DNA from: a virus
Lineage: Duplodnaviria; Caudoviricetes
DNA length: 36,482 nt
Direction: 5' to 3' (one strand)
Virus record (IMG/VR): IMGVR_UViG_3300012347_000345
Location: 1 to 36,482 of that record
Shown piece after piece: positions 461 to 36,427 of this stretch. The translations under genes and the position numbers were made by a program. Numbering within the stretch: position 1 is the first letter of the stretch; the number at the start of each line of letters is the position of its first letter. The notes beneath the pieces are model-generated. The model had not been told where the DNA came from and searched no databases. It saw only the letters and a program-made list of their open reading frames with translations.

Positions 461-493
461 TTTGCAAATATTATTAATAATTGTTTACATTTG
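461..493 (+). promoter_or_regulatory. Bacteroidota sigma-A-type promoter of the RHH gene
   Basis: TTTG (461-464), 21-nt spacer, TACATTTG (486-493); matches the TTTG/TAnnTTTG consensus. Confidence 0.75.
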
Positions 494-518: not shown

Positions 519-707
519 ATGAAGATTAAAACGATAGAAAATCCTAAAAAAGCAGGTCGCCCACAGGGTGAGCCAACATCGGTAATTTCAGTAAGAATCC
601 CAACCGCATTAAAGAAAGAAGTAGATGAGAGATTCGGGATCGGTTGGCAAGGAATGTTTAAGGACTTTATTAAAGTCTATTTAATGGACAAAAATTCCAC
701 AATTTAA
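519..707 (+). CDS. Ribbon-helix-helix (CopG/Arc-like) DNA-binding protein
   Basis: AGRP motif then alternating strand VISVRIP and helix ALKKEVD; start moved from 462 to the ATG at 519, downstream of the promoter. Confidence 0.7.
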   Translation: MKIKTIENPKKAGRPQGEPTSVISVRIPTALKKEVDERFGIGWQGMFKDFIKVYLMDKNSTI

Positions 708-788
708 TAGCAGTAGATTGTTTTTCATATAGTTGATAGGTTAAAGGTGATTATTTAAAGGGGTAGAATTTTTTTCTGCCTCTTTTTT
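708..788 (+). ncRNA. Candidate 3'-UTR antisense RNA element ending in a terminator
   Basis: TGTTTTTCAT (719-728) and ATAGGTTAAA (736-745) are complementary to early-gene leaders (TTTAACCTAT...ATGAAAAAC). Confidence 0.45.
757..788 (+). terminator. Intrinsic terminator
   Basis: AAAGGGGTAGAA / TTCTGCCTCTTT stem followed by a T tract. Confidence 0.8.
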
Positions 789-850: not shown

Positions 851-952
851 ATGAAGCACCTTGATGAAATTAACCACAAATTTGTAGCTATTGCCTATTG
901 GATTATAGCTATTTGCTCGGTTGTTATACTACTTAAATGTTGCAACCTATGA
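851..952 (+). CDS. Small membrane protein (33 aa)
   Basis: Read by eye as MKHLDEINHKFVAIAYWIIAICSVVILLKCCNL; ATGA overlap with the next gene. Confidence 0.55.
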   Translation: MKHLDEINHKFVAIAYWIIAICSVVILLKCCNL

Positions 953-1164
953 CACCGAAAGAACAAGCAGAAGAATTAGTCAATAAGTTTAATTATGGCA
1001 ATAAACATTTCTTAATGCCTGATGCAAAACAATGTGCATTAATTGCAGTGGATGAGATTCTTGAAATATGTTCACTTGATTGTATATCCAATTTACATAA
1101 TCATGAATTTGAAGCCAAGTTTAATTATTGGCAAGAAGTTAAAATAGAAATAAAAAACCTATGA
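949..1164 (+). CDS. Hypothetical phage protein (MTPKE...AKQCALIAVDEI...YWQEVK type)
   Basis: ORF track, start refined to 949; paralog follows immediately. Confidence 0.75.
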   Translation: MTPKEQAEELVNKFNYGNKHFLMPDAKQCALIAVDEILEICSLDCISNLHNHEFEAKFNYWQEVKIEIKNL

Positions 1165-1340
1165 CACCGAAAGAACAAGCTAAATCATTTTATGTTCAAG
1201 CATTAATGCAAGGGTATAATGAAACGATTGCCTTAGAGATGGCAAAGTTCGCAGTTGATAAAGTTATCAATTATGGTGAATTGGATAGAATATCAGAGAG
1301 TTTTTGGTATGATGTATTAGAAGAACTCGAATCAATGTAA
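1161..1340 (+). CDS. Hypothetical protein, diverged paralog of 949-1164 (59 aa)
   Basis: Read by eye as MTPKEQAKSF...AKFAVDKVI...FWYDVLEELESM; ATGA overlap with the previous gene. Confidence 0.7.
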   Translation: MTPKEQAKSFYVQALMQGYNETIALEMAKFAVDKVINYGELDRISESFWYDVLEELESM

Positions 1341-1341
1341 T

Positions 1342-1479
1342 ATGAAAATAAGACTAACAGTATTTATGAATAGGCTTGAAATTTTGCCTTGCATCACACT
1401 CCACAAATGGAATAAGAGTGCATCAATTTATTTCTCTTGGATTATTTTCTCATTAGGCTTCGGGATCAAATGGAAGTAA
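1342..1479 (+). CDS. Hypothetical protein (45 aa)
   Basis: Read by eye as MKIRLTVFMNRLEILPCITLHKWNK...GIKWK; fills the gap in the operon. Confidence 0.55.
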   Translation: MKIRLTVFMNRLEILPCITLHKWNKSASIYFSWIIFSLGFGIKWK

Positions 1480-1820
1480 TATACGGAACTGTACCAAGTA
1501 AGTCTAACTCATATCGCTTTAGTGGTAAGTTTATGTATAAGACTAAGGCTTTAAAAGATTATGAGGCTTCTTTTATTGAGCAATGTACTTTTTATAAGGG
1601 AGCAAAAATAGAAGGTAACATCAAAATTATGCTAAAGGTTTACTACCCTAATAGGAAATCTGATTTAGATGGAGTTACCAAAGCCGTACTTGATTTGTTG
1701 CAAAAAGTAGAGGCTTTTGATAATGATAATAAGGTTGCAGAATTATTTTTATACAAAGGATTGGATAAGGAAAATCCAAGAATTGAATTTTTGATTGAAC
1801 CAGTAGATTATGTAATATAG
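1470..1820 (+). CDS. rusA: RusA-family Holliday junction resolvase
   Basis: VPSKSNSY, KSDLDGVTKAVLDLLQ, FDNDNKV and NPRIEF motifs; ATG at 1470 preferred. Confidence 0.88.
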   Translation: MEVIYGTVPSKSNSYRFSGKFMYKTKALKDYEASFIEQCTFYKGAKIEGNIKIMLKVYYPNRKSDLDGVTKAVLDLLQKVEAFDNDNKVAELFLYKGLDKENPRIEFLIEPVDYVI

Positions 1821-1947
1821 TCAGGTGGCGGAATTGGTAAACGCAAAAGCCAACTCGTATTTGGAAGCGAGTATAAATAAGACAATCCTGAGTTCGTGGC
1901 TGACAAGCTGGCACTTGGGCTTACAAGTTCGAATCTTGTCCTGACTA
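1819..1947 (+). ncRNA. tRNA-like RNA with an expanded central (anticodon/variable) region
   Basis: Acceptor stem AGTCAGG/CCTGACT, D arm GCG-GAATTGGTAAA-CGC, T arm ACAAG-TTCGAAT-CTTGT; 129 nt; no encoded CCA. Confidence 0.8.
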
Positions 1948-2022
1948 CTTAGTTTTTTTTAAAAAATCGTAGCGTCCAAACTTTGATTAACTAAAACTTG
2001 ACTGATGGAAAGACATCATTTT

Positions 2023-2104
2023 TTATACCTTAATAGGTACAAATATGATGATATTTATCAACATTATACCTTAAAGGGTATTATAATGATGGATTTTTAC
2101 AACA
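2023..2104. repeat. Degenerate 41-bp tandem duplication, each unit with a TACCT-N4-RGGTA palindrome
   Basis: Units 2023-2063 and 2064-2104 share 30/41 positions by manual alignment. Confidence 0.7.
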
Positions 2105-2128
2105 TTTTTTAACTAAACCAAACACACA

Positions 2129-2245
2129 ATGAAAGCAAAACTTAAAGACTTGTATTGGATCATGGTAGAATTATTCATAGCTATCATTTACATCCCAATA
2201 GATTATTTCAGAGAACTTTTTAACCTAAATTCAAACCAAAAATGA
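2129..2245 (+). CDS. Small hydrophobic protein (38 aa)
   Basis: Typical leader AACCAAACACACAATG; ATGA overlap with 2242. Confidence 0.55.
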   Translation: MKAKLKDLYWIMVELFIAIIYIPIDYFRELFNLNSNQK

Positions 2246-2610
2246 CACAAAAAGAATCACACAAATTTCTTACATACTACTCGCTATGTAATTTCATGAC
2301 CGACTTTATCGAAGATAAATGGTCAAATTCATCTCACAATGTTAAGAAAGTTAAATACCTAACTAACCAATTAAAAGGTGAATTAGAGAAGTCTATTAAT
2401 CACATTTTTGAATCAAAGCAAAATGGTGGTGTAGATATGAATAATGTTCTTGATCAGTTTGTTAATGCCAGCTTTGTAATGGAGTTCTTTTTTAATGTAG
2501 GATTGGAAATGGACTTAATGGATGAAGATAAGAAAGTAGAGTTAAACGATAGAATGAACAAGTTATTGCAAGAATATAACATAGACTTAAATAAATATGA
2601 AGGTAGATAG
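2242..2610 (+). CDS. Hypothetical protein
   Basis: ORF track; coupled with neighbouring genes. Confidence 0.75.
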   Translation: MTQKESHKFLTYYSLCNFMTDFIEDKWSNSSHNVKKVKYLTNQLKGELEKSINHIFESKQNGGVDMNNVLDQFVNASFVMEFFFNVGLEMDLMDEDKKVELNDRMNKLLQEYNIDLNKYEGR

Positions 2611-2962
2611 CATAGTAGAATCAGTAAGAGAAGATTTGCATAATCGTTCTCAGGTAGGAATCAAAAAGTATAATAATACTCTTGATCGTGAAGATTTAGA
2701 AGCAACCGATTGGATTCAACACGCATACGAAGAATTACTTGATGGGGCTTTGTACCTTAAAAGACTAAAAGGTGATGTTAAGGAAACAAATGAGCAATTT
2801 GATGAAGTTGTCAGGGGATACTTCAGAGTAACAAAAGAATTATCTGTTAAAGAAAAGATTATCGAAACTCTTAATAAGGTTATTTTATCCCAGGAGCAAG
2901 AGATAAAAGAACTTAAAAACGAAAAATATTTACAAGAAAAAAGAAGGGCTTGGCATTATTAG
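2597..2962 (+). CDS. Possible MazG-like all-alpha nucleotide pyrophosphohydrolase with a coiled-coil tail
   Basis: GIKKY..TLDR.DL...W..HAYEELLDGALYL contains an EExxD acidic motif. Confidence 0.5.
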   Translation: MKVDSIVESVREDLHNRSQVGIKKYNNTLDREDLEATDWIQHAYEELLDGALYLKRLKGDVKETNEQFDEVVRGYFRVTKELSVKEKIIETLNKVILSQEQEIKELKNEKYLQEKRRAWHY

Positions 2963-2973
2963 AGCCCTTTTTT
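2944..2973 (+). terminator. Intrinsic terminator overlapping the stop codon
   Basis: AAGGGCT...AGCCCTT followed by a T tract. Confidence 0.7.
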
Positions 2974-3013
2974 ATTTTTTTTGATTAATTTTTAAATATT
3001 TTTTAATATTTAT

Positions 3014-3044
3014 TTTGTTGTTATATAAATGTTTACTAATATTG
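3014..3044 (+). promoter_or_regulatory. Promoter of the replication/recombination operon
   Basis: TTTG (3014-3017), 19-nt spacer, TAATATTG (3037-3044, one mismatch to consensus). Confidence 0.6.
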
Positions 3045-3072
3045 TACAACAAACAACAAAAACAATAAAACA

Positions 3073-3312
3073 ATGAAAAAGCAAATTTACTCAATCGAAT
3101 TAATTTTAGCCCTTTTAGGGTTTCAGGTAGATGATTTCTTCATCATCTCATTTTGGAGAACAAGCGGAGAAACTTCACTTCAATCACACTATTCGGAAGA
3201 AATGTTCAATAAGTGTCAAATGTTATTAAATCAAGATTTCATTTATACTTATGATAATAACATTCATCAATATTTAAATCAAAAAATCAATTTACGAATC
3301 TCATTATCTTAA
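3073..3312 (+). CDS. Hypothetical protein
   Basis: ORF track; A-rich leader. Confidence 0.7.
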   Translation: MKKQIYSIELILALLGFQVDDFFIISFWRTSGETSLQSHYSEEMFNKCQMLLNQDFIYTYDNNIHQYLNQKINLRISLS

Positions 3313-3335
3313 TTTCAATTTAAACAAACACAATT

Positions 3336-3977
3336 ATGTCAATTATCGCTAAATCAAGCGGAGGTGGAAGCATCGAACGCAAAGTAGTACCAGCAGGAAA
3401 CCATGTAGCAAGATGCTACGGTATGATCCAAATCGGTACAGTGGAGCAAGAGTACAAAGGGGAAAAGAAAATGCTACATAAGGTTATGGTAGATTTCGAA
3501 TTACCTATGGAAACGGCAGTATTTAAAGAGGGTGAGGAGGCAAAGCCTTTTGTGATCTCAAAGGACTTTACTTTGTCATTTAATGAAAAATCAACACTTC
3601 GTAAAATGTTAGAGTCTTGGAGAGGTAAAGCATTTACGGATGCGGAAGCAGCAAACTTTGATATTTCTAAATTAATTGGAGCTCCATGTATGCTTAACAT
3701 TGTTCATAAGGCATCAGCTGATGGCACAAAGACTTATGCAAATATCACGGGAATCACTCCAATGCCTAAAGGATTGCAATGCCCCGATCAAATTAACCCA
3801 ACTAGATTATTAGCTTACGATGCTTGGAATCAAGATTTGTTTATGACTTTACCTGAGTGGTTAGCAGATAAGATTAGTGCTACACCTGAGTACAAGGCTA
3901 AGTTTGCAATGGATACACCTAAGCAAGAAGCATTTAATTTAGACAAGGTTGAAGAAGAAGATTCTTTGCCATTTTAA
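3336..3977 (+). CDS. Phage single-stranded DNA-binding-like protein
   Basis: PAG.H.ARC, TLS..EKS.LRK.LESWRG and LIG.PC motifs of a widespread phage OB-like family; acidic C-terminal tail EEEDSLPF. Confidence 0.7.
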   Translation: MSIIAKSSGGGSIERKVVPAGNHVARCYGMIQIGTVEQEYKGEKKMLHKVMVDFELPMETAVFKEGEEAKPFVISKDFTLSFNEKSTLRKMLESWRGKAFTDAEAANFDISKLIGAPCMLNIVHKASADGTKTYANITGITPMPKGLQCPDQINPTRLLAYDAWNQDLFMTLPEWLADKISATPEYKAKFAMDTPKQEAFNLDKVEEEDSLPF

Positions 3978-4001
3978 TTTACATTTTAAATAATAAATAC
4001 A

Positions 4002-4211
4002 ATGAAAAAATTTGTAAAGATTACGACAAGAGAAGGTGATGCTATTATTCGGTCATGGGTTGATATTGATATTATTGTTGAATTACATCAAAATTCAATT
4101 ACCCAACAAGGCAATAATGAGGGCACTTTGATTTATTATGAAGATGAAATTGAAGATAATAAACAAATCAATATTATAAATTTTGCAGATACAATAGATT
4201 CTTTATATTAA
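4002..4211 (+). CDS. Hypothetical protein
   Basis: ORF track. Confidence 0.7.
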   Translation: MKKFVKITTREGDAIIRSWVDIDIIVELHQNSITQQGNNEGTLIYYEDEIEDNKQINIINFADTIDSLY

Positions 4212-4223
4212 TCACAACACACA

Positions 4224-4505
4224 ATGACACGAAACGCAAACAAATTAGTCAAAACTATTGAACGCAGTATTGGCTACAAAGCAAGATTTGTTTTCAAATT
4301 TGGAAACTTAGAAGAAGATTTAGAATCTGAAATTTTAGGAGTTACGGAATCGGGGAATATGGTTATCATTAACCACCCCGATCCATTCCTAAACTTCTCA
4401 ATCATGGAGGAACATATTACTAAGGGAAAAAGTGAAATGTTGCCAAAATTAGTTAAGCAAATGTGTATCCCAATCAATAACATTTTAGCATTTAAGTTAT
4501 TATGA
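4224..4505 (+). CDS. Hypothetical protein (best target of the candidate sRNA at 10720-10796)
   Basis: ORF track; typical leader. Confidence 0.75.
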   Translation: MTRNANKLVKTIERSIGYKARFVFKFGNLEEDLESEILGVTESGNMVIINHPDPFLNFSIMEEHITKGKSEMLPKLVKQMCIPINNILAFKLL

Positions 4506-4723
4506 GTAAATCAAAAGAAAAACTACCAATACCTAGAGGTAGGAGTTATTCGGAGTTGTTTCAAGAAACGGCAATTCAATTGAATAAAGATAAAAAACTC
4601 CCATACCGAGGCAGAGAATATACAATAGGAATTGTACAATCTCACGCATATAGCAAGATTAATGATCCACAAGTTGAAGAATATTTAAAACGCATCGCAA
4701 ATGAATGGTATAATACCAAATGA
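4502..4723 (+). CDS. Possible small DNA-binding protein
   Basis: AIQLNKDKKLPYRGREYT resembles the A..LN..G...RG..W pattern of recombinase-type DNA-binding domains. Confidence 0.45.
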   Translation: MSKSKEKLPIPRGRSYSELFQETAIQLNKDKKLPYRGREYTIGIVQSHAYSKINDPQVEEYLKRIANEWYNTK

Positions 4724-4898
4724 CACAAAGTGGCAAGAGCAACAAGAGATTCTCTCAAATGCCCATTGGGAGCAAATATTCCAACTATTAGAGTTCATGG
4801 TTAATGGGATATACCCAGATGACTTTGATGAGTTAAGCCCAAGTGGAGATGTAAGAGATTATTTTAAAGCCAAATATCAAGTAACATTTAAAAACTAA
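4701..4898 (+). CDS. Hypothetical protein
   Basis: ORF track. Confidence 0.65.
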   Translation: MNGIIPNDTKWQEQQEILSNAHWEQIFQLLEFMVNGIYPDDFDELSPSGDVRDYFKAKYQVTFKN

Positions 4899-4903
4899 AC
4901 CAA

Positions 4904-5644
4904 ATGAACACACCCGAAATTATTGAAAAACTAAAAGATGACAATGAATACTACAATGGATTTGGTAGAAATTATTTATCAAATTCGGACATTGGTGTCT
5001 TATTGAGAAATCCAAAAATGTTTGGAGTGCATGGAGAAAAAACTCTTGCAATGCTTCAAGGAGGATATTTTCATACAGCTTGCTTAGAGCCTCATAAATT
5101 AAAAGATTTTCCTTTAGTTGATGCTTCTACTCGTACTACTAATTTATATAAAGATGCTTGCAAAGATAGAGGCTTAGACTTTATGCTTTTGACTAAGGAA
5201 GCGGAAGAAGTAGATTATATGGTGAAAGCACTAAGAAATAATCGTGATCTATCTAAATTAGTTTGGGATAATGGTTGCAAATATGAAGTTCCAACTACGG
5301 GAGTAATTATGGATTTACCATTCAAAGGGAAAGCCGACATTATTAATGGGGATATGATTTATGATCTGAAAACAACAACATCGTTGGATGACTTCAAGTA
5401 TAGTGCTAAGAAGTATAATTATGATTCTCAAGCTGCAATCTACCAACAATTATTCGGGAAAAAGATGGCATTTATTGTCATTGAAAAGGGAACTAATCGC
5501 TTAGGATTCTTTCAATGTTCCGATGAGTTTATTGAAAATGGCTGGACTAAGGTTGCCAAAGGAGTTGAGGTTTATAACAACTTTTTCGGAGTGAACTCTT
5601 ACATGGACATTAATCAGTATTACATCAACTCTTACTTATTTTAA
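4904..5644 (+). CDS. PD-(D/E)XK exonuclease, RecE/exonuclease VIII-like
   Basis: LSNSDI, G..FH...LEP, KGKADII, YDLKTT and Y.YDSQAAIY motifs. Confidence 0.85.
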   Translation: MNTPEIIEKLKDDNEYYNGFGRNYLSNSDIGVLLRNPKMFGVHGEKTLAMLQGGYFHTACLEPHKLKDFPLVDASTRTTNLYKDACKDRGLDFMLLTKEAEEVDYMVKALRNNRDLSKLVWDNGCKYEVPTTGVIMDLPFKGKADIINGDMIYDLKTTTSLDDFKYSAKKYNYDSQAAIYQQLFGKKMAFIVIEKGTNRLGFFQCSDEFIENGWTKVAKGVEVYNNFFGVNSYMDINQYYINSYLF

Positions 5645-5646
5645 TT

Positions 5647-6042
5647 ATGAGAATATTATTAGACCCAATTTTTAAATCAAAAGATAGAGTTTATCATTAC
5701 AAATATGGTTGGGGAACAGTTATGGAAATTCATAATGGAGTAAACCAAAGAATTTTAATAGAGTTTGATGAGGTTAAAAATCTAATCCGTGAAATGAAAG
5801 CAGAAGAAAATCTTTTATCATTTGCCGAATACACTCTTAAAGGCTTCTCCCAAGAAAGACCTGAAGAATTGCCAAATAAAGGTGATATTGTTTGGATAAG
5901 AAATGAATTTCCAAGCGAATGGGAAATTGGATATTTTTTAAAGAAAGAAGGTAATACATATTATATTTCATCCTCTAAAGGCTCACAAGGGTGGAGAAGT
6001 GCAGGACTCGAAATGACAACAACTGACCCATACGAAAAATAA
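5647..6042 (+). CDS. Hypothetical protein (probable tandem small beta-barrels)
   Basis: DRVYH..YGWGTV and KGDIVW.R patterns. Confidence 0.65.
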   Translation: MRILLDPIFKSKDRVYHYKYGWGTVMEIHNGVNQRILIEFDEVKNLIREMKAEENLLSFAEYTLKGFSQERPEELPNKGDIVWIRNEFPSEWEIGYFLKKEGNTYYISSSKGSQGWRSAGLEMTTTDPYEK

Positions 6043-6047
6043 TACAA

Positions 6048-6251
6048 ATGAACACACAACGAGAAATACTACGAAATGAACAAGGTATCATAATCAATGA
6101 ATTAGGAACAACCTTTAATGAATTTGGTCAAAACCTTTATAATCAATTAAATCTTAATTATTACAAACTTTATGGCAAAGCAATTAACCCAGCAAGAAAA
6201 AGCACTCAAAGACAATCGTTTAATGGTACAAAAACTAATAGAGGAATATGA
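6048..6251 (+). CDS. Hypothetical protein
   Basis: ORF track; ATGA overlap with 6248; competes with the overlapping ORF 6172-6363. Confidence 0.55.
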   Translation: MNTQREILRNEQGIIINELGTTFNEFGQNLYNQLNLNYYKLYGKAINPARKSTQRQSFNGTKTNRGI

Positions 6252-6472
6252 AGAACTTAAAAGTATCCCCAATTGCAATCCTATTAGTGTTATCGCTTAT
6301 AACTATTTTGTCATGGAGTTCAAAATCTCAGATGATGAACACGCAAATAGTCTTGGAATATAAATTTAGTGAGTTTGATGATAGTTTTCATGAAGATTTT
6401 GATTCTACTTATTATTACTACGGGTGTCAATACAATACTTTCAAACTAAATCATAAATGCAATGGCAAATAA
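6248..6472 (+). CDS. Hypothetical membrane-anchored or secreted protein
   Basis: N-terminal hydrophobic stretch IAILLVLSLITILSW. Confidence 0.55.
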   Translation: MKNLKVSPIAILLVLSLITILSWSSKSQMMNTQIVLEYKFSEFDDSFHEDFDSTYYYYGCQYNTFKLNHKCNGK

Positions 6473-6689
6473 ACAAACCGCAATGATGCAGATGCTTGAG
6501 TTCATTCATACTTTAGGTGAAAACTATGAAAGTAAGATGCACGCAGTCCTATGTCAAGAAAAAGCCATAGAACTTCTTGAAATAGAAAAAGAGCAGTTAA
6601 AAGATGCTTATTCTAATGGTGTTGTTAGGCATCTACATAGTAAAACTATATTATCAGAAGAATATTACAACGAAACTTATGGCAAATAG
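6462..6689 (+). CDS. Hypothetical phage protein (KQTA...EKEQ...YYNETYGK type)
   Basis: ORF track; paralog of the next gene. Confidence 0.75.
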   Translation: MANKQTAMMQMLEFIHTLGENYESKMHAVLCQEKAIELLEIEKEQLKDAYSNGVVRHLHSKTILSEEYYNETYGK

Positions 6690-6882
6690 ACAAACTCCAG
6701 TGGAATGGTTAATTCAAAGAATTATTCATTCAAGTAATCTGCCAATTGAAACAATTAATGATCTAATTTTTCAATCAATAGCAATAGAGAAAGATGAGAT
6801 TGGTAGAGCATACCAAGAAGGACTATTAGATGGTATGAATCACTCACCTAAAGATTATTATAATAGAACTTATGGCAAATAG
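6679..6882 (+). CDS. Hypothetical phage protein, paralog of 6462-6689
   Basis: MANRQTPVEW...EKDEI..AY..G...YYNRTYGK; start refined from 6604 to 6679. Confidence 0.75.
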   Translation: MANRQTPVEWLIQRIIHSSNLPIETINDLIFQSIAIEKDEIGRAYQEGLLDGMNHSPKDYYNRTYGK

Positions 6883-7138
6883 AAACGCAACAATTACCCA
6901 AGATGAACTAAAGTGCCCAAATTGCTCATTTGACTACTCAAAGACAAAACTTGTTGAAAGATTTCTAAAAGTAGGGAATAAGGTGACAATGAGTTTTAGT
7001 TGTGATTGCAAAAGAAGATTGGTTATTAGGCACATGGTTAATTTTATAAAGATTTACGATGTAACCGAAATTCGCAATAAGCAAAACTTAAAAGCTAAAA
7101 TGGATAGAATTAAATCTAAGCAAAATGGAGCAATCTAA
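6872..7138 (+). CDS. Putative zinc-ribbon protein
   Basis: CPNC...CDC cysteine pairs; basic C-terminus. Confidence 0.6.
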   Translation: MANRNATITQDELKCPNCSFDYSKTKLVERFLKVGNKVTMSFSCDCKRRLVIRHMVNFIKIYDVTEIRNKQNLKAKMDRIKSKQNGAI

Positions 7139-7367
7139 GCAAGATGAATATTACCAAATGGCAATTGATTGGGTAAATGATTTTATTCAAAATAATGATG
7201 AAATGATTGATTTTAAATGTTTTGATGGTGTAACTATTTTTAATTCCCATTTGACATTATTAGTCTGGAAGCAAAGGCTTGAATTATCAAAGAATCGTGA
7301 AAAACACGCATCATTTTTAAAGATTAAGAAATTTAAAGATTGGTATAATGAAAAACAGAAAATATAG
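7125..7367 (+). CDS. Hypothetical protein
   Basis: ORF track. Confidence 0.7.
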   Translation: MEQSKQDEYYQMAIDWVNDFIQNNDEMIDFKCFDGVTIFNSHLTLLVWKQRLELSKNREKHASFLKIKKFKDWYNEKQKI

Positions 7368-7578
7368 AGTCTTAGAAATAGATAATCGTTTTTTCCCGCA
7401 AGAGAAAAGATGGTTTTGGTGGGTGTATTTAGATAATATGGTAGAAAGCATTACTTGGAGTGGAGAATTTAAAAATCATTCAGAGTGCTGGGATTTAAAT
7501 GAAGCAAAAGATGTGATAAGAAAGCGAAAGTTATGGCTAAGAATTAAATATAAACAACCAATAGTTCACAATTATTAA
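7348..7578 (+). CDS. Hypothetical protein
   Basis: ORF track; KYRV...FFPQ.K.WFWW pattern. Confidence 0.7.
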   Translation: MKNRKYRVLEIDNRFFPQEKRWFWWVYLDNMVESITWSGEFKNHSECWDLNEAKDVIRKRKLWLRIKYKQPIVHNY

Positions 7579-7593
7579 CTAATCAACAACACA

Positions 7594-7992
7594 ATGAAAC
7601 AATTTAATATGTTTGGATCGGAATTAGATCCTAGTCAAGAAGAAAAGAAATATAGTTCAAAGATTGAGTCCCCAATTTATGAGCCTAAATATCAAAAGCC
7701 TCATATTATGGAACTTTGCGATAAATCTAAGACACATAGGCTATTGAAAGAGATTGATTCTTCGGATTTACCAATTGAAGAAAAGAATTTCTTAATGGAT
7801 GCAGCAAGAAGGCATAATGTATTTAATTATGAGAAAATTGCCGATTATTATGCAAAGTCATCAAAAGAAATGCAAGATCTAATGGAAAGAAGTGGTCTAG
7901 TGATTATTGACTTTGAGAAAGCAGTACAAAATGGATACATTAAACTTTGTGAAGAAATTAGAAAACAATACCTAGAAGAATATGGAGAATAA
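7594..7992 (+). CDS. Helical protein coupled to the glycosyltransferase gene
   Basis: KY..KI..P.YEP, FL..AA.RH.VFNY.KIADYYA and ME.S.LVIIDF.KA pattern; overlaps the start of the GT gene. Confidence 0.7.
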   Translation: MKQFNMFGSELDPSQEEKKYSSKIESPIYEPKYQKPHIMELCDKSKTHRLLKEIDSSDLPIEEKNFLMDAARRHNVFNYEKIADYYAKSSKEMQDLMERSGLVIIDFEKAVQNGYIKLCEEIRKQYLEEYGE

Positions 7993-8806
7993 TTTTGCGG
8001 TGTTTATTCTAACACATGGTAGGCCAGATAATGTAAAAACATTAAGTACAATTAGAAAGTGTGGATACACTGGCAAAGTTTATTTTATTGTAGATAATGA
8101 AGATAAAACAATATATAAATACATTGAAAATTTTGGAGATGAGTTTGTGAAAGTTTTTGATAAAAAAGAAATGGCTAATAGTGTTGATGAAGGCAATAAT
8201 TTTGATGAAAGAAGAACTATTACTCATGCTCGAAATGCTTGCTTTAAGATAGCCAAAGAGATTGGTATAACTTATTTTGTACAACTAGATGATGATTATT
8301 ATTATTTCGGGTATAGATATGATACGGGAGCAAAAATTATCAAAAATTTAGATCGTGTGTTCTCAATTATGCTTGATTTTTACAAAGGTATTAATGCTAA
8401 ATCAATAGCATTTGGTCAAGGAGGTGATCACATTGGTGGATTTAGTGGAATTAAGCTAAAAAGAAAGTGTATGAACTCGTTTTTTTGTAGCACCGAAAGA
8501 GAATTTCAATTTATTGGTGCAATGAATGAGGATGTCAATACCTATACAACTTTAGGAAGTAGGGGTGATCTATTTTTCACATTTACTAACATACAACTTG
8601 ATCAAAAAGATACACAAAGTCAAACAAATGGAATCACCGATATGTATGTTCGATATGGTACTTATTGTAAAGCATTTACTACTACCATGATGCACCCAAG
8701 TAGTGTTAAGGTGTCAATGATGAATAGTAATCACCCTAGAATACATCATACAATAAAATGGATCAATACAACACCAATGATTTTAGACCATAAACACAAA
8801 AAATAA
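7982..8806 (+). CDS. GT-A fold glycosyltransferase, TET-associated (TAGT)/GREB1-like
   Basis: FILTHGRP N-terminus, ARN, QLDDDY (DxD), MNSF and NEDV motifs. Confidence 0.78.
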   Translation: MENNFAVFILTHGRPDNVKTLSTIRKCGYTGKVYFIVDNEDKTIYKYIENFGDEFVKVFDKKEMANSVDEGNNFDERRTITHARNACFKIAKEIGITYFVQLDDDYYYFGYRYDTGAKIIKNLDRVFSIMLDFYKGINAKSIAFGQGGDHIGGFSGIKLKRKCMNSFFCSTEREFQFIGAMNEDVNTYTTLGSRGDLFFTFTNIQLDQKDTQSQTNGITDMYVRYGTYCKAFTTTMMHPSSVKVSMMNSNHPRIHHTIKWINTTPMILDHKHKK

Positions 8807-8807
8807 T

Positions 8808-9284
8808 ATGAAAACCAAACAATTAGCATTAGGTGATTTCTTGCAAGAGTTATTGAGCAAATTTCACTTCGCAATCAAAGATCAAGAATTACTTGATTCA
8901 CTTAATGAAACAAAGTTAAGTGCAACCGAAGGGTTAGAATTAATTTATCACATTGATAAACCAATAGCAATTCCACAAATTCCAAAAGTGAATGCTCATG
9001 ATATACTTAAATGGGTCGATGAAAAAGAGGAGCATTTCAATAAATTTTGGGAGATGTATGATAAAAAGATTGGCACAAAAGATGCAAAAACAAAGTTTTT
9101 AAAGCTACCAATGAAAGATATTGAGAAAATATTTGAAACTTTGCCACACTATTTAAAATCAACACCCGATATAAAGTTTAGAAAGCATCCCGTTACATAC
9201 CTTAATCAACGCACTTGGGAAGATGAAGGGTATATGCCAAGGGGCATTAATAGACCAAATGTGGTGAACCCATTCAAGTTTTAG
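8808..9284 (+). CDS. Replication initiator/helicase-loader-like protein
   Basis: F..FW..Y.KK.G...A...F and HP.TYLNQ..WEDE motif of phage replisome-organiser C-terminal domains; lies directly before dnaB. Confidence 0.65.
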   Translation: MKTKQLALGDFLQELLSKFHFAIKDQELLDSLNETKLSATEGLELIYHIDKPIAIPQIPKVNAHDILKWVDEKEEHFNKFWEMYDKKIGTKDAKTKFLKLPMKDIEKIFETLPHYLKSTPDIKFRKHPVTYLNQRTWEDEGYMPRGINRPNVVNPFKF

Positions 9285-9299
9285 TAAAACAACAACACT

Positions 9300-10658
9300 A
9301 TGAAACAATTAGACAAAGTAGCATTTACCGATTTAGATGCCGAAAGGGAAATCTTAGCCCTTTTAATGAATCACCCAAGCTATACAAAAGACATTCAAAA
9401 GATTATCACTCCCGATGTGTTCCACTTTGGAACAACTAAGGCGGTATATTTGACTTGTGTTGAATTATTTTCCGAAAAAGGCACATTCACTCAATCAGAT
9501 ATTATTATTCGCTTAAAATCAAAAGGAAGCAATGATTGGGTAGATGTAATGATGGCATCTACAACACGAACTCCATTAAATGCCCAAGAGGTGATCTATT
9601 ACCTAGCCGAGCTCAAGGGTAAAAGAGATATTCTTGCAATGAGTAGAGAAGTAAATAATGCCTTAGTAAATGGTGAAGATTATTTCTCAATCATTGATAA
9701 GATAAATAAAGTTGCATCTACCGATATTATTCAAGATGATACAAATGAAGTTATGGACATGAAGTCTGCTTTAAGTTGTGCGGTTGAAAATATTGGGGAT
9801 GTGATGACTAATGGTAGCTTATCAGGAGTTCCAACGGGTTACAACATCTTAGATAATGTTACAGGTGGTTGGTTAAAGGGTAATGTTATCCTATTTGCTG
9901 CACGACCTGGGCAAGGAAAGACTATTTGCCTTCTTGAACATTCACGATGTGCAGGAGAGATGAATAAAAAGGTATTATTCTTATCCTTAGAGATGCCTGT
10001 TGTATCATTGATATACCGAATGATTAGTGGGCAATTAGATGACTCAACTCCTTATTCTAAAATCAAAACGGGTAGAATTGATATTAATCAATTTAGCAAT
10101 ATCCAAAAGCAAGCGGTTACTAACCTTGAAAAGCTACCTATCACTTGGTACGATGGAGCAAACCGAGATATTAATTACCTATCCACTTTAATACAAAAGA
10201 TTGTCCGTGAAAAGCAAATTGATATGGTAGTTGTGGATTACCTGCAACTAATAACAGATAGTTCAATAAGAAGTAACGATGAAACGGCAGTAGTAGGCTC
10301 GGTATCAAAAAAGATTCAACAATTGGCAAAGAAGTTAAACATTCCTTTCTTATGTGCAGCTCAATTGAATCGCCAATCGGAAGGGAGAAACTCTCACCGA
10401 CCTAAGTTATCGGATTTGCGTTCTTCAGGTCAAATTGAGCAGGATGCTTCGGTTGTAATAGGCTTATACCGAGATGACTATTATAAGTACGAGAAAGCAA
10501 AAGAAGAAGGGAATAGCAATGTAGTGTATGACAATGTAATAGAATACATTTTCATGAAAAATAGAGATGGGGATACTCGAACCGCTGATTTATTTATAGA
10601 TGTAGCAACGAGTAAGATTAGGGAGCTAAATCCTTCTTATCAATCTCCAGGATTTTAG
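9300..10658 (+). CDS. dnaB: Replicative DNA helicase
   Basis: AARPGQGKT Walker A, SLEM, VVDYLQL, QLNR, P.LSDLRSSGQIEQDA and KNR.G motifs. Confidence 0.97.
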   Translation: MKQLDKVAFTDLDAEREILALLMNHPSYTKDIQKIITPDVFHFGTTKAVYLTCVELFSEKGTFTQSDIIIRLKSKGSNDWVDVMMASTTRTPLNAQEVIYYLAELKGKRDILAMSREVNNALVNGEDYFSIIDKINKVASTDIIQDDTNEVMDMKSALSCAVENIGDVMTNGSLSGVPTGYNILDNVTGGWLKGNVILFAARPGQGKTICLLEHSRCAGEMNKKVLFLSLEMPVVSLIYRMISGQLDDSTPYSKIKTGRIDINQFSNIQKQAVTNLEKLPITWYDGANRDINYLSTLIQKIVREKQIDMVVVDYLQLITDSSIRSNDETAVVGSVSKKIQQLAKKLNIPFLCAAQLNRQSEGRNSHRPKLSDLRSSGQIEQDASVVIGLYRDDYYKYEKAKEEGNSNVVYDNVIEYIFMKNRDGDTRTADLFIDVATSKIRELNPSYQSPGF

Positions 10659-10682
10659 TTTGATTTCATAGTGTTTTTTTAG

Positions 10683-10715
10683 AATACCCATTGACTTTGT
10701 TGGTGGGTATTTTTG
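10683..10715. terminator. Bidirectional intrinsic terminator ending the replication operon
   Basis: AATACCCATTGAC / GTTGGTGGGTATT stem followed by a T tract. Confidence 0.8.
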
Positions 10716-10719
10716 TTTT

Positions 10720-10796
10720 TAAAAGCAAAAGTCGGAGATATTCCCCGACCTTGCTAACCAAACCACAACACCCAATGAAACACGATGAACGCATTA
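10720..10796 (-). ncRNA. Candidate ~70-nt small antisense RNA with its own promoter and terminator
   Basis: Minus-strand -7 box TACCTTTG (10797-10804); body complementary to the start regions of 4224, 7594, 9300 and 2129; hairpin AGCAAGGTCGGGGA/TCTCCGACTTTTGCT followed by a U tract. Confidence 0.55.
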
Positions 10797-10804
10797 CAAA
10801 GGTA

Positions 10805-11950
10805 TCAAAAAATATGTGTTATCCTACAAATCTGACCATGCTCTTTTGAGTGTAAGAAACCTTCAATAGCTTTAATCCCTCCTACACCATAACCGTTGCG
10901 GTGATGCCATGAATCATTACCACTTGGGCTTCTTAATGATTCAATATTCAAGCCAATCATATCCCTTGAGGTTTTGTGATGGACATGATGGGTATAAAAA
11001 TATCTATGCTTAGTTACTCCCCAATCAACTTTAGCCTCCTCAGCCATTAGTAAACCTAAGTCTGCCTGTTTTGCACCATCGCCATGAGTAGTACCAATAA
11101 GATTTTCAAAATATCGGTAATATTTCCGATGTGCAATTGAGCAATCGAATGTAATATTGGTAGAATGTCTAAACCAAGATTTGATTGCATCTGCCAAAAA
11201 GAAACCATTAGTATAATCATGATTAGAAGGATTGAATACTACATGAACATCTGCTACACTTGTTAGCTTCTCAATAACCTCAACATAAAGTTGTTTAGCC
11301 ATTAAGAAGTTGTCGTACCACATTTGGCAAACATCTTGAGATGTACCCGAAGTTGTCGTATTACGAGGTGAATCAACATGGAGAATATCATTGCCAATAA
11401 CCAACATTATTTGGTCAATGTTGAATCCTTTTACCTTTTGCAAAATACCCTCAACCCCTTCATGGACTCTCTTAACCGCAATGTGAGAATTGTAATCTTC
11501 ACCAGATTCGAAAGCGGTAGCTAATTTACCAATATGCACATCGGCAGGATCAACAACGAGCAAATGTCCATCAACTAAGAAATCTCTTTCAATGTAGGGA
11601 TATTTAGGAGAGTGAGCATCCATCTTCTCAATGATTTCATCTCTTAGATTCTCATAAGTTATTTGGTTTTTGTCTAAGCGAACCGCAACCGAATAATCCT
11701 TTGTCTTATCCCAATATAAGCTAACCCCATTTATATCAATACCTCTTTCTTCGCAATGTTTTGCAAGCCCAGGATTGTCTTGTTGTCTTGCTAACTTAGC
11801 TTCCATCTTAGAAATACCCTTACGGATTGTTTCAGGATTAAATGAAGTTCCTTCAGTTGCCCTTCTTGAAGCTAATCCCTTGCTAACTCCTTCGTTTTTG
11901 AATATCGCAAAAGCATCTAATACTAATTGCGAATAAGTTTTCTTTTCCAT
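10805..11950 (-). CDS. Calcineurin-like metallophosphoesterase
   Basis: DVH, GNDILH, SNHD, HGD and HHVHH motifs. Confidence 0.85.
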   Translation of the reverse strand: MEKKTYSQLVLDAFAIFKNEGVSKGLASRRATEGTSFNPETIRKGISKMEAKLARQQDNPGLAKHCEERGIDINGVSLYWDKTKDYSVAVRLDKNQITYENLRDEIIEKMDAHSPKYPYIERDFLVDGHLLVVDPADVHIGKLATAFESGEDYNSHIAVKRVHEGVEGILQKVKGFNIDQIMLVIGNDILHVDSPRNTTTSGTSQDVCQMWYDNFLMAKQLYVEVIEKLTSVADVHVVFNPSNHDYTNGFFLADAIKSWFRHSTNITFDCSIAHRKYYRYFENLIGTTHGDGAKQADLGLLMAEEAKVDWGVTKHRYFYTHHVHHKTSRDMIGLNIESLRSPSGNDSWHHRNGYGVGGIKAIEGFLHSKEHGQICRITHIF

Positions 11951-32883: not shown

Positions 32884-33033
32884 TTATTTAGAACGAATCT
32901 AAATAACACCTAACTACTTAATAACCAAACCTTTATCTATGAGTTTTACCCGATTTTTGCCTTATTTAGAACCAATCTTAATAATGTTTACACCACAAAC
33001 ATAACACTTCTTATTTAGATTCAATCTAATTTC
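32884..33033. promoter_or_regulatory. Three Fur-box-like palindromes (TTATTTAGA-N5-TCTAAATAA type)
   Basis: Copies at 32884-32906 (perfect 9-bp arms), 32962-32984 and 33011-33033. Confidence 0.6.
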
Positions 33034-33728
33034 TTTGTTTTTACCTAATTTTTAAATGCGGTGTTTACATCTATTACCTATATTTTCCTAGGTTTTTTTT
33101 GTTGGGTACCCCGACTAATTTCAGTAACCCCTCTTTGCTCCCCACCTTTTGGGATCACCCCCTCAAATGCTCCAATACAGCCCAATAACACCAAATAACA
33201 CACCTATGCGGGTGTAATCATGTAGTTACAAAGGTATCCCCACGGTGGAGGGTGTAGTAGTAAGGGGGTAGCCCACCACCTAAAACCATATAATAGCAAT
33301 CCCAATAACCCACCAAAGTGAAACAATATAACACCCATAGATAACACCCATAGATAGCCAACATAGTAAGCCAATACACCCAACTAGATAAACCACATAA
33401 ACACACACACCTAGCTAAGTAGATCCACCTAGGTAAGCCAATCAATACAACATAAAACAATAAGGTAGTAACATGAGTAACTAACATAACCCAACTAGGT
33501 AAATAGGTTAATGAATGTGATCACCTAGGTAATAGCATGAGTGTACTAATGTGATCAGACATAAGATCCAATTTAAGGTACTATATCTTTAATCTAAGAG
33601 AGTTTATAAGTAAGGATAATAATCATAAGGGTAACCATAATAAAGTGCCTTAGATGCAAAAAGTACCTAGATCATGCTAGATAAATGTTTACGGGAATAG
33701 AATATATACTTTTTTATTATACTCTATT

Positions 33729-33929: not shown

Positions 33930-33962
33930 CTATTGTATATTTGTAAACAAGTATTATATTCG
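33930..33962 (+). promoter_or_regulatory. Early promoter P1
   Basis: TTG...TATATTCG; a 31-bp block is identical to 34542-34572. Confidence 0.75.
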
Positions 33963-33996: not shown

Positions 33997-34287
33997 ATGA
34001 AAAAGCAACTTTTAAACTCAATCACAACTAATAATTTCCTAGTTAATCTTTTTGCTTCATTGGGCATTATTTCAATTTTAGGGCTTGTATCTTTTCCTTT
34101 TATGGGCTTGCCTTCATTGGCTTTTATTTGTGCCGTTTTAGTTCCTTTATTCTTTGTCCTTATGAGTTCAAGCGAAAAGGATTTGTACACCGATTTAAAA
34201 GAGGCAAAAGATCAATTAGGTTTATCAATGTTCACAAATGATAAAGCCCTATTGAAAAAATGCTTGCAAGTTGCTAAATCAATTTAA
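33997..34287 (+). CDS. Early membrane protein (two TM helices)
   Basis: Hydrophobic N-terminal half; first gene after P1. Confidence 0.7.
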   Translation: MKKQLLNSITTNNFLVNLFASLGIISILGLVSFPFMGLPSLAFICAVLVPLFFVLMSSSEKDLYTDLKEAKDQLGLSMFTNDKALLKKCLQVAKSI

Positions 34288-34311
34288 TAAACCTTTAAAA
34301 AATAAACACTC

Positions 34312-34524
34312 ATGAAAAACTTGACACCTACACAAAAAAGAAATTTATTAGCTGATTTGATCACCTTAAAATCTCAATGTGGTTATGATATAATTCACCT
34401 AGTTGGGCAACCGCTAAGCTATTTTGATTTCGAAAAGGTAAAATCTTTAATAAATGAAATTGCAATAGAATACCAAGAAATGACAGGTCATGAGTTTTAT
34501 TTTACCTATTCAGAAAGAAATTAA
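34312..34524 (+). CDS. Early hypothetical protein
   Basis: ORF track; typical leader. Confidence 0.72.
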   Translation: MKNLTPTQKRNLLADLITLKSQCGYDIIHLVGQPLSYFDFEKVKSLINEIAIEYQEMTGHEFYFTYSERN

Positions 34525-34541
34525 AAAATATTTTTATCTAG

Positions 34542-34574
34542 CTATTGTATATTTGTAAACAAGTATTATATTTG
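34542..34574 (+). promoter_or_regulatory. Early promoter P2
   Basis: TTG...TATATTTG; duplicate of P1. Confidence 0.78.
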
Positions 34575-34608
34575 TACAAGAAATCAATCACACAAAAAAA
34601 ACAACATT

Positions 34609-34797
34609 ATGAAAACCTTTCAAACTACCTTACAAGTTATTTTATTGATCCTTTCAGGCTTATCTCTTATGCTTATCATTAAGCAAGTTTTAGAAAGCAA
34701 TTATAGCACAAATCACCTATGCTTAATTATTGTTTTTTGTTTACCTGTTATATTTTGCTTTGTATTATCAGCAAGTTTATTAAGCCAAAAGAAATAA
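34609..34797 (+). CDS. Early membrane protein (two TM helices)
   Basis: ORF track; hydrophobic. Confidence 0.68.
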   Translation: MKTFQTTLQVILLILSGLSLMLIIKQVLESNYSTNHLCLIIVFCLPVIFCFVLSASLLSQKK

Positions 34798-34824
34798 TCA
34801 TTTAACCCATAAACACAAAATAAG

Positions 34825-35004
34825 ATGCAAAACATAGAAAGAATTAAGGTATTAAAATCAAGAATGCAGTACCTAAAAAACAAGTTAGCTTTTTGTGATT
34901 CATCAGTTTTTAAAATCACTTTTTTAGCATTCACAAAAGCACAAGATGAATGCTCACTACTTGAATCACTTGAATATCAAAAAAACAAAAATTACCAATT
35001 TTAA
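34825..35004 (+). CDS. Early hypothetical protein (59 aa)
   Basis: Read by eye as MQNIERIKVLKSRMQYLKNKLAFCD...NYQF. Confidence 0.6.
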   Translation: MQNIERIKVLKSRMQYLKNKLAFCDSSVFKITFLAFTKAQDECSLLESLEYQKNKNYQF

Positions 35005-35037
35005 TAACAAATCTTTTGACCCTTAAATTTTACTACC

Positions 35038-35175
35038 ATGAAAAACACAACTAAAAAAGAAATTATCGAATTATTCCTAGGAGAGGATAAATTCACAAAA
35101 TCAGATATTATGGAAACCCTAGGAATTTGGGCAGTGATCTTTATAGCCTTAATTTTTGCTTCTTTATTATCTTAA
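35038..35175 (+). CDS. Early small membrane protein (45 aa)
   Basis: Read by eye as MKNTTKKEIIELFLGED...LGIWAVIFIALIFASLLS. Confidence 0.62.
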   Translation: MKNTTKKEIIELFLGEDKFTKSDIMETLGIWAVIFIALIFASLLS

Positions 35176-35209
35176 TTAACAAATCCTTTAACACTTAAAA
35201 AATACTATT

Positions 35210-35653
35210 ATGAGCAACTTTAATAAATACGCATTTTTAGATGATCTAAAAACTTTATTGCTAGATGAAGTAATAAACGAAAATTTAACTGATATAGACT
35301 CAATTCAAGATTTTATTCATGAGGAATTAGAGAGGCAGGTAATGTATTCTAGGGATTGTTTCGAAATTGCTATGGATCTAAATCTAACTGATTTTAATGA
35401 TTTCGAACTAGGAGTACCTACAAGCATTTATCAGCTTGCTTATATGGGTCTTTATGAGTTTACAATTGAAAATTTTGATCATGGACTGATTGAGTCAGCA
35501 ATTGAGTATAAAGATGAATTTATAAAATTTGTTTTTAGCGATAATTGTATAAATGTGGAGGGTGGGAAAACTAAAACACAATGCACTCAATACTCAAAAG
35601 CATTTACTCAAATTGAATTGCTAGAATACTATTTAAAAGAATATTCATATTAA
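35210..35653 (+). CDS. Ocr-like acidic DNA-mimic (anti-restriction) candidate with an extra C-terminal domain
   Basis: About 24 D/E against 5 K/R in the first ~104 aa; TDIDSIQDFIHEELERQVMYSRDCFEI resembles T7 Ocr [27 protein letters not shown] as recalled; early position. Confidence 0.6.
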   Translation: MSNFNKYAFLDDLKTLLLDEVINENLTDIDSIQDFIHEELERQVMYSRDCFEIAMDLNLTDFNDFELGVPTSIYQLAYMGLYEFTIENFDHGLIESAIEYKDEFIKFVFSDNCINVEGGKTKTQCTQYSKAFTQIELLEYYLKEYSY

Positions 35654-35679
35654 TTTTTAACCTATAAAACACAAACACA

Positions 35680-35829
35680 ATGAAAAACTTTCTAGTAACA
35701 TATTTTGATACCAGATTGCAAATCGAAAGAAAAGAGATTTACTATTCAATTTCTTTAAAAGATTGTGAATCAAGTTTTGATTTCAGAAATCCAGATTACT
35801 TTATTTTAGATATTCAAGAAATAGAATAA
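35680..35829 (+). CDS. Early hypothetical protein (49 aa)
   Basis: Read by eye as MKNFLVTYFDTRLQ...ILDIQEIE. Confidence 0.65.
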   Translation: MKNFLVTYFDTRLQIERKEIYYSISLKDCESSFDFRNPDYFILDIQEIE

Positions 35830-35852
35830 TTAACCTATAAAAATTTAAACTC

Positions 35853-36020
35853 ATGAAAAATTACAAAGCAGTAAGATGTTACGATTCAGATTATATAAGT
35901 GAAGGTAAAAAAGTTTTTTATGTTACGATTGAAACAGATATAGATGTTTTAGATTATATTTCTTTTGATACAGAAAACGATGCATTTACATTTATAGATT
36001 TTTATAACAATAAAAAATAA
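35853..36020 (+). CDS. Early acidic hypothetical protein (55 aa)
   Basis: Read by eye as MKNYKAVRCYDSDY...FDTENDAFTFIDFYNNKK. Confidence 0.65.
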   Translation: MKNYKAVRCYDSDYISEGKKVFYVTIETDIDVLDYISFDTENDAFTFIDFYNNKK

Positions 36021-36024
36021 CACC

Positions 36025-36255
36025 ATGAAAAGATTTAGAATAAAACAATCAGATGAAATTATCGCCAATGTTAGGCATAGGGGTGAAATAGTAGGAAAAT
36101 GCTATTTCGACTGCGGAAGCACTAAAATAGATCAAATAGTAGCTAGCATGAGAGAAAGAATAGACTGGGAATTAAAAGGAACAGGTAAAAGAATTGAAAT
36201 AATGATTTATAACCGATCAACAGACAAAGTAAAATACATTGACACCTTTGCATAA
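36025..36255 (+). CDS. Early hypothetical protein
   Basis: ORF track. Confidence 0.72.
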   Translation: MKRFRIKQSDEIIANVRHRGEIVGKCYFDCGSTKIDQIVASMRERIDWELKGTGKRIEIMIYNRSTDKVKYIDTFA

Positions 36256-36262
36256 AGACATT

Positions 36263-36378
36263 AAGCCCCAAATAGGGGCTTTTGTCGTTTAAATAGGGGC
36301 TTACTTTATTTTTGCCTCATGTAATTAAATTAGCCCTATTTGGGCTTTTGTTGTTTTAGCCCTATATGGGCTTTATTT
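36263..36378 (+). terminator. Three tandem AGCCC-N5-7-GGGCT terminator hairpins
   Basis: Hairpins at 36263-36281, 36332-36346 and 36358-36372, each followed by Ts. Confidence 0.75.
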
Positions 36379-36427
36379 GTTTAAGCCTTACCAATGTATC
36401 AAGCGAAGCAATTCGAAGCGATACACG

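Follow-up and report, generated by a model that had tools for sequence, protein, structure and literature searches.

A conserved two-block element downstream of a putative ribbon-helix-helix gene mirrors the early leaders of a phage and is likely an RNA

The locus and its genome setting

We analyzed a window of 36,482 nt, a complete, circular virus record whose ends overlap by 55 nt. It carries genes for an HK97-type head, tape measure, lysozyme, DnaB and RusA, and a scan of 41 ORFs showed no integrase. In Bacteroidota, ribosomes do not respond to Shine-Dalgarno sequences, and sigma-ABfr promoters follow the consensus TTTG-N19-21-TAnnTTTG. The leaders of the window are A-rich and have no Shine-Dalgarno pattern, and its promoter boxes read TAnnTTTG; these features point to a Bacteroidota host. 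A terminase 85% identical was found in a Bacteroidetes metagenome bin (L316), the assignment of which may be wrong. Genes were assigned by layout to early (33997-36255), middle (851-10658) and late (the minus arm) classes. Since the record is circular with a terminal overlap, the early genes sit immediately upstream of a 62-aa ORF, and the element described here (708-788) follows that ORF. The features of this region are:

461..493, plus strand: predicted host-type (sigma-ABfr) promoter of the RHH-like gene, with TTTG at 461-464, a 21-nt spacer and TACATTTG at 486-493
482..489, unstranded: candidate operator TGTTTACA, overlapping the -7 box of the RHH-like gene
519..707, plus strand: 62-aa ORF, likely a ribbon-helix-helix (RHH) DNA-binding protein, with an N-terminal GRP motif
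719..728, plus strand: block 1, TGTTTTTCAT, the complement of AUGAAAAAC(A) and equal to the 5' block of the FopS consensus
736..745, plus strand: block 2, ATAGGTTAAA, the complement of the early-leader tag TTTAACCTAT; AGGUUAA is in the FopS consensus too
757..788, plus strand: predicted intrinsic terminator, a 12-bp stem including G-U pairs, with a U tail
33997..36255, plus strand: early gene block of nine small ORFs, called early from position and promoters

The early block has host-type promoters with -7 boxes at 33936, 34548 and 34567, its leaders carry the tag or variants of it, and several near-repeated GC hairpins (AAGCCC...GGGCTTTT) lie at its end (36260-36380). Upstream of the RHH-like gene, an ORF at 206-457 has a position kept in relatives and a poorly conserved protein, and may hide a non-coding element. 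After the terminator, positions 790-850 hold a conserved promoter-like stretch (AAAATTATTTTT ... TTTTTG AAAA) that could be a middle promoter; in L020, L022, L023 and L294 this stretch precedes the element instead, and in several relatives it is directly followed by what we take to be a NUMOD4/HNH-like gene (L294:380-870; the first post-terminator ORF in L005, L014 and L015). Further along are two small tandem ORFs, each starting MTPKEQA (949-1340), and a ParB-like ORF adjoining a TET-associated glycosyltransferase (PF20691; 7594-8806), possibly a DNA modification pair.

The 62-aa protein had no sequence match in Pfam, PHROG or PDB, and 12 relatives were found in the 50% library. The AF2 model built from 24 sequences (pLDDT 77) has two helices after VISVRI, the strand not being called in the monomer. 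Nearly all rows of a fold search with the model were RHH proteins (Z 2.6-4.0, none reaching Z 5), including DinJ (Z 3.7, rmsd 2.1 over 41), NikR (Z 3.6), the PutA RHH (Z 3.3) and Arc (Z 2.9); Foldseek with the first model gave no useful match. The nearest named Atlas clusters, which we use as a lead only, were RHH_1, NikA-like and TacA1 (0.90-0.91). The protein is likely, not proven, to be an RHH protein.

The -7 box of the RHH-like gene is kept in relatives, and the TGTTTACA motif that overlaps it recurs at early promoters, 33942 and 34554. Copies of TGTAAACA/TGTTTACA lie at 482-489, 32985-32992, 33062-33069, 33942-33949 and 34554-34561, two of them upstream of the small terminase gene. The wider pattern TGTWWACA has six copies in the control region, between or on promoter boxes, and none elsewhere in the genome; over 12 near-complete genomes, a hand sum gave 44 copies in the control region (about 1/7 of the length) versus 29 elsewhere. 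This distribution makes TGTWWACA a candidate operator, at which the protein would act as a repressor.

The element and its match to the early leaders

The sequence-only reading had described the segment after the RHH stop as the reverse complement of an early-leader consensus. This proved exact, 714-745 giving the 32-mer it quoted, and the early starts lie where it placed them (TTAACCTAT at 35830, TTTAACC at 34801, ATGAAAAAC at 34312, 35038, 35680); ATGAAAAAC occurs at 7348 too. The tag TTTAACCTAT has one copy per strand in the whole genome, at 35656 (plus) and 745-736 (minus). The element mirrors the leader consensus as two blocks rather than any single leader, with 7 nt between blocks versus about 14 nt in the 35680 and 35853 leaders.

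Over 13 aligned sequences, the terminator stem is paired in all 156 cells, with compensating changes in 6 of the 12 pairs, a score reached by none of 500 shuffles. The plus strand folds better than shuffles (z -2.25) and the minus strand no better than shuffles (z -0.61). Because the plus strand folds and the stem covaries, the predicted RNA reads the anti-leader strand. The 5' part of the element has no consensus structure in the 13 aligned relatives; block 1 is unpaired in the consensus fold and partly paired in the single window mRNA (unpaired probability 0.37-0.60). A generic promoter/terminator scan, whose promoter type differs from the host type here, missed the terminator at 757-788. 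No plus-strand TAnnTTTG box was found between 486 and 3899, so a small RNA would be derived from the 3' UTR. A query of sequencing runs with 1-2400 listed no RNA data set carrying the region, which argues in neither direction.

The tag block, ATAGGTTRAR, follows the gene in all 15 viral relatives (56-100% protein identity), in which the flanks diverge. Of 20 metagenome loci, 19 were viewed (L289 was not among them) and three lacking full downstream sequence were left out; the AGGTT(A/T)A block is kept in 15 of the remaining 16, the exception, L297, having block 1 only. Of the 15 viral relatives, 11 have a form of block 1, which one clade, L006-L009, lacks. Some changes break the DNA match and keep G-U pairing: GGTTGAG (L015), GGTTAAG (L014, L290) and TAT for CAT (L005). 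The distance from stop codon to element varies from 4 to 110 nt, with about 90-110 nt inserted in some relatives. In L294 an entire gene, presumably NUMOD4-like by its sequence features, lies between stop and element, yet block and terminator remain together; the view of this locus as a loss of the element was rejected when the element was found downstream of the inserted gene.

The minus strand reads ATG AAA AAC behind the tag, and 708-788 could belong to a 15-codon ORF of that strand, as its leader and start, or be the relic of an inverted early gene. We find this hardly credible. Neither the frame nor the length is constant among close relatives, L005-L009, L014 and L015 have no ATG, and tag and ATG are 3-7 nt apart, where 10-14 nt is usual; a relic would not retain 10 nt at 56% protein identity. 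The small minus-strand ORF was rejected on these grounds.

The element is not universal, since the cultured Flavobacterium phage lillamy9-1, which shares the exonuclease, has no tract after that gene and no match to our model R1. Its genome (L287) has intergenic repeats with GTTATAAC or TAACG between leftward genes at 3000-8800. For the more distant homolog P0018 no locus was found. In a motif scan of viral contigs (24 of 64 parts), a terminator came after the pattern at 5 of 103 distinct sites and at 0 of 103 in the other orientation; the reversed pattern gave 1 of 106 and 0 of 106, a weak difference from a filter that missed two known family members. Model R1 had no matches in 61 Bacteroidota genomes, which shows little, as about 79 candidates per genome were scored of up to thousands.

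The early leaders typically have TTTAACCT about 20-24 nt before the ATG, mostly then ATGAAA. With our own ORF caller on 14 genomes, TTAACC was found in 33 of 75 early, 12 of 323 middle and 1 of 299 late leaders, and Watson-Crick runs of at least 8 with the genome's own element in 47, 54 and 16 of them, respectively; in these counts homologous leaders recur, and a filter for A-rich leaders was applied to the early set alone. In a non-redundant set of 85 leaders, 40 have TTAACC, and in 37 of these its start is between -20 and -24. Tag variants are mixed, a C-to-T change at position 6 (9/67) keeping the pairing and a T-to-C change at position 8 (9/67) breaking it. In the window itself, runs of at least 8 join the element to 7 of its 9 early leaders and to 19 of 293 coding-strand tiles. 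Two predicted targets are:

35656..35688, plus strand: best predicted target, leader and start of the 35680 ORF (-25.5 kcal/mol, in the best 0.1% of coding-strand tiles)
35830..35860, plus strand: predicted target, leader of the 35853 ORF (TTAACCTAT tag), with a Watson-Crick run of 9

Unconstrained duplex energy was not specific: the 35680 leader is the sole early leader among the 21 best non-self tiles of 7286, the 35853 duplex (-14.9 kcal/mol) is matched by 17% of tiles, three of nine early leaders are in the best 5% of tiles, and the 36025 leader is worse than the median. Against base shuffles, with up to 10 leaders per class, the element beat 40 of 40 on early leaders in 12 of 13 genomes, with a median z of -4.0 for early, -1.5 for middle and -1.1 for late leaders. 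Our case rests on conservation and on the matched changes described below, with energy excluded.

An ordinary U-rich pre-terminator tail could mirror A-rich leaders by composition, and G/U-rich RNA pairs promiscuously in predictions. Composition-preserving shuffles do worse than the element, however, and the GG core is nearly invariant in relatives whereas the stem varies; shuffles and matched changes make this explanation very improbable. Nor do pairing predictions carry a sign of effect, and the A-rich stretch of the leaders is partly looped out between the blocks, so that the RNA might raise or stabilize translation of early leaders, or act solely in cis on its own mRNA. This too seems very unlikely, if slightly less so: the start codon lies under block 1, an arrangement that goes with repression in FopS and GibS (PMC11697453, PMC7366714). 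Cis pairing was rejected, the RHH-like gene's own leader pairing weakly (-8.8 kcal/mol) and having no tag.

In a clade at about 50% protein identity the block reads ATAGGTTTAAG (GGTTTAA type). Among non-redundant early leaders (L297 excluded from both sets), TTAACC is found in 1 of 29 leaders of this clade versus 40 of 85 of the window's group, and TTAAAYYT in 6 of 29 versus 1 of 85. The window block pairs better than the GGTTTAA block on 62 of 85 own-group leaders versus 14 of 29 other-clade leaders; on own-clade leaders the GGTTTAA block has no absolute gain (-5.0 vs -5.7 kcal/mol), and the relative preference alone shifts. The predicted strand of the 62-aa protein also differs in this clade, so this covariation, taken alone, would fit a protein site as well. 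A second group, found via the exonuclease and with another genome layout, has TTTTCAT...ATAGGTTTA, immediately followed by early genes of that strand; in its downstream leaders, which include non-early genes within 5 kb, TTAACC occurs in 0 of 38 and TAAACC in 6 of 38 versus 1 of 85. Either matched change amounts to a single event in one lineage, and the leader counts share ancestry.

The changed protein strand would fit a reading of TTTAACCT as a DNA site or a site bound by protein (an operator, roadblock, promoter element or recombination boundary), with the inverted copy behind the RHH-like gene as a further site, e.g. one that drives an antisense transcript into it. The tag stands at a fixed distance before early genes, like the start-associated sequences of mycobacteriophages (PMC3203893), and a TAATTTTG box lies on the minus strand at 796-789. 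Such a site would account neither for the anti-AUG block and the changes compatible with G-U pairing, nor for the fixed position ahead of a terminator on the same strand, the likeness to FopS and the sister elements, which share the design and differ in sequence; and a separate candidate operator sits at the early promoters; we consider it quite unlikely. Judging from these comparisons of sequence, 708-788 is a real, selected element, likely an RNA, with a conserved two-block mirror of the early-leader tag and start codon.

Sister elements B and C

Two further tracts of this kind follow the DnaB and exonuclease genes:

10659..10714, plus strand: element B, a TTTGATTTCATAGTGT tract (10659-10680) after the DnaB stop, then a terminator hairpin
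10721..10804, minus strand: element C, a G/U-rich tract (10780-10754) with its own terminator, directly after the exonuclease stop

The tract and hairpin of element B were found in the 12 genomes compared, plus three more, and are degenerate in G009. G012, G013 and G015 have the variant TTTTCCA, their element B mirrors TGGAAAATC, and starts of the ATGGAAAA form occur in their early genes. Element C opens with the -7 box TACCTTTG (10804-10797) and was found in all 12 genomes holding DnaB; in G013, ACG replaces ATG on the opposite strand, and CGT in the element keeps a G-U pair. Duplex z scores against shuffles were -2.5 (early), -2.4 (middle) and -0.7 (late) for element B, and -3.2, -4.0 and -0.9 for element C.

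A cascade had been proposed from the sequence, in which later transcripts end in an anti-start-codon RNA against earlier genes. The sister tracts agree with it in being conserved, in pairing by prediction with early and middle leaders and in sparing late ones; early and middle genes are not separated. Both the RHH gene and the element C unit have a host-type -7 box, so neither has to be a later transcript; with host-type promoters in front of both, the element RNAs may be produced from the outset and take effect as they accumulate. Double repression and a timed cascade are what we infer rather than observe. We can picture a timetable of translation that Bacteroidota phages would keep by means of FopS-like RNAs, with class address tags in leaders free of Shine-Dalgarno sequences, three terminator-capped anti-leader RNAs (after the RHH gene, DnaB and the exonuclease) that turn off early and then middle genes, late leaders that avoid the tags, and an RHH transcript that represses twice; as a whole this scheme is conceivable and rather doubtful.

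A survey for enrichment of TTTCAT just before terminators had also been proposed. Taking the exonuclease gene as anchor, we gathered 79 loci, discarded 4 that lacked an end and kept 39 non-redundant ones, of which 19 have a terminator within 100 nt. TTTCAT is enriched there, in 10 of the 19 spacers, two of the 10 belonging to the window's own family, versus a shuffle mean of 1.0 and maximum of 4 (500 shuffles), and sense ATGAAA is in none of the 19 stop-to-hairpin spacers. Related units after the exonuclease gene begin with a TAnnTTTG-type box.

Proposed mechanism and known systems

The best Rfam match of 718-792 was FopS (RF04319), with 22 bits (E 0.1-0.42; model positions 1-71) versus a gathering cut-off of 56. 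The window had no Rfam match at gathering level, and 10600-10900 gave none worth noting; a search of 5 of the 61 Bacteroidota genomes found no FopS. FopS of Bacteroides, which shares both blocks, is the closest description (PMC11697453). In that paper, FopS pairs beside the start codon to block translation, the mRNAs it represses are those of host SusC and glycoside hydrolases, and RbpB is its binding partner; FopS-14 is a 3'-UTR-derived member, and a FopS sequence was noted in one Caudovirales phage (PMC11697453). The likeness extends to the blocks UGUUUUUCAU (identical at 719-728) and AGGUUAA, their order, the length and the terminator, which align over the whole model. Like FopS of Bacteroides thetaiotaomicron, the element has a predicted single-stranded 5' seed and a predicted intrinsic terminator in about 65-70 nt, and its pairing over the start codon is predicted (PMC11697453). 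FopS is multicopy in Bacteroidaceae chromosomes, whereas each phage record has one strong copy of the element, and it has host mRNA targets, whereas here prediction points to early genes of the phage itself, which show matched changes. By analogy the element would work like FopS while falling outside the family by its own test, and homology and convergence are both possible.

On balance we favor 708-788 as a FopS-like small RNA that would pair in trans with phage early mRNAs and block ribosome loading. The host polymerase would transcribe the RHH-like gene from its -7 box and stop at 788, and the tail would accumulate within the mRNA or as a processed 3' fragment. The tag would be bound by block 2 and AUGAAAA by block 1, so that the two duplexes enclose the A-rich stretch at -3 to -14, which drives initiation in Bacteroidota (adenines -3, -6, -12 and -13 in Flavobacterium; PMC6847099). 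The pairing would block initiation, as in FopS (PMC11697453), and the protein of the same transcript would repress early promoters at TGTWWACA, so that one unit would halt new early transcription and silence existing early mRNA. This agrees with the sequence-only reading in the anti-leader element against early genes and in the likely RHH protein, for whose proposed role as a repressor a candidate operator was found.

A real RNA could instead be mainly host-directed, either a FopS mimic against envelope and transporter mRNAs that start with AUGAAAA or an RbpB-like sponge, the tag then being a host-style leader feature. Both blocks are common with FopS, whose targets are host SusC mRNAs (PMC11697453); on a sample of 40 host leaders, the element does better than all of 30 shuffles (z -3.6); 47 of 212 host leaders have a run of at least 8, block 1 fitting host starts; and 18 of 20 hand-picked host sites with tag and ATGAAA open ORFs of at least 60 aa, including SusD-like and secreted proteins. 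The best-conserved block, however, is the anti-tag, and the tag is in 1 of the 212 host leaders (from four stand-in Bacteroidota genomes); the pattern had 126 matches versus 100 for the control in 61 genomes (hand sum), and the block changes along with the phages' own leaders. We find a mainly host-directed RNA improbable, and host side effects plausible.

To our knowledge, early-gene shut-off in small phages without their own RNA polymerase or sigma factor is poorly known. For small RNAs of virulent phages, targets are known in few cases (PMC4933390). If the FopS-like reading is true, a shared leader tag and one mirror RNA would give compact control of a mosaic, fast-changing gene block, any newly gained gene with the tag joining the controlled set, and phage RNAs would be linked to the host FopS family, whose phage-borne spread was merely suggested. 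The pair of 70-nt RNA and tag is testable in Flavobacterium or Bacteroides and could be a programmable translation switch in the phylum.

In the literature searched, which included few subscription papers, no paper described a phage RNA directed at a leader tag common to early genes. The c4 RNA of P1/P7 and the CI RNA of P4 are phage-encoded trans-acting antisense RNAs against own transcripts; unlike the element, they are immunity RNAs with few targets in one operon and no gene-class leader tag. GibS is a trans-acting RNA of Bacteroidota with two seeds that pairs over start regions without Shine-Dalgarno sequences, and differs in being 145 nt long, host-encoded and directed at two direct targets (PMC7366714). 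GcvB acts on multiple targets, silencing ACA motifs that lie before start codons and enhance translation, and the G/U tract of element C mirrors leaders of this kind; GcvB differs in being enterobacterial and host-encoded and in acting beside a Shine-Dalgarno sequence (PMC3879156). The start-associated sequences of cluster K mycobacteriophages are likewise an asymmetric tag before many start codons, with a single opposite-strand site in three genomes, and their authors left open whether an RNA or a protein reads them; they differ in being a 13-bp G-rich motif of Actinobacteria phages, for which the accessible text shows no antisense RNA (PMC3203893).

Two-block tracts with a terminator were also seen in other phages, at L130:293-351, where the tract comes after an apparent capsid gene, and at L113:293-358 (25.5 and 35.7 bits with R1, respectively). 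Another, with a strong terminator, lies on the minus strand of a viral contig of 51% GC (L032, around 417-438), and is possibly nearer to true FopS.
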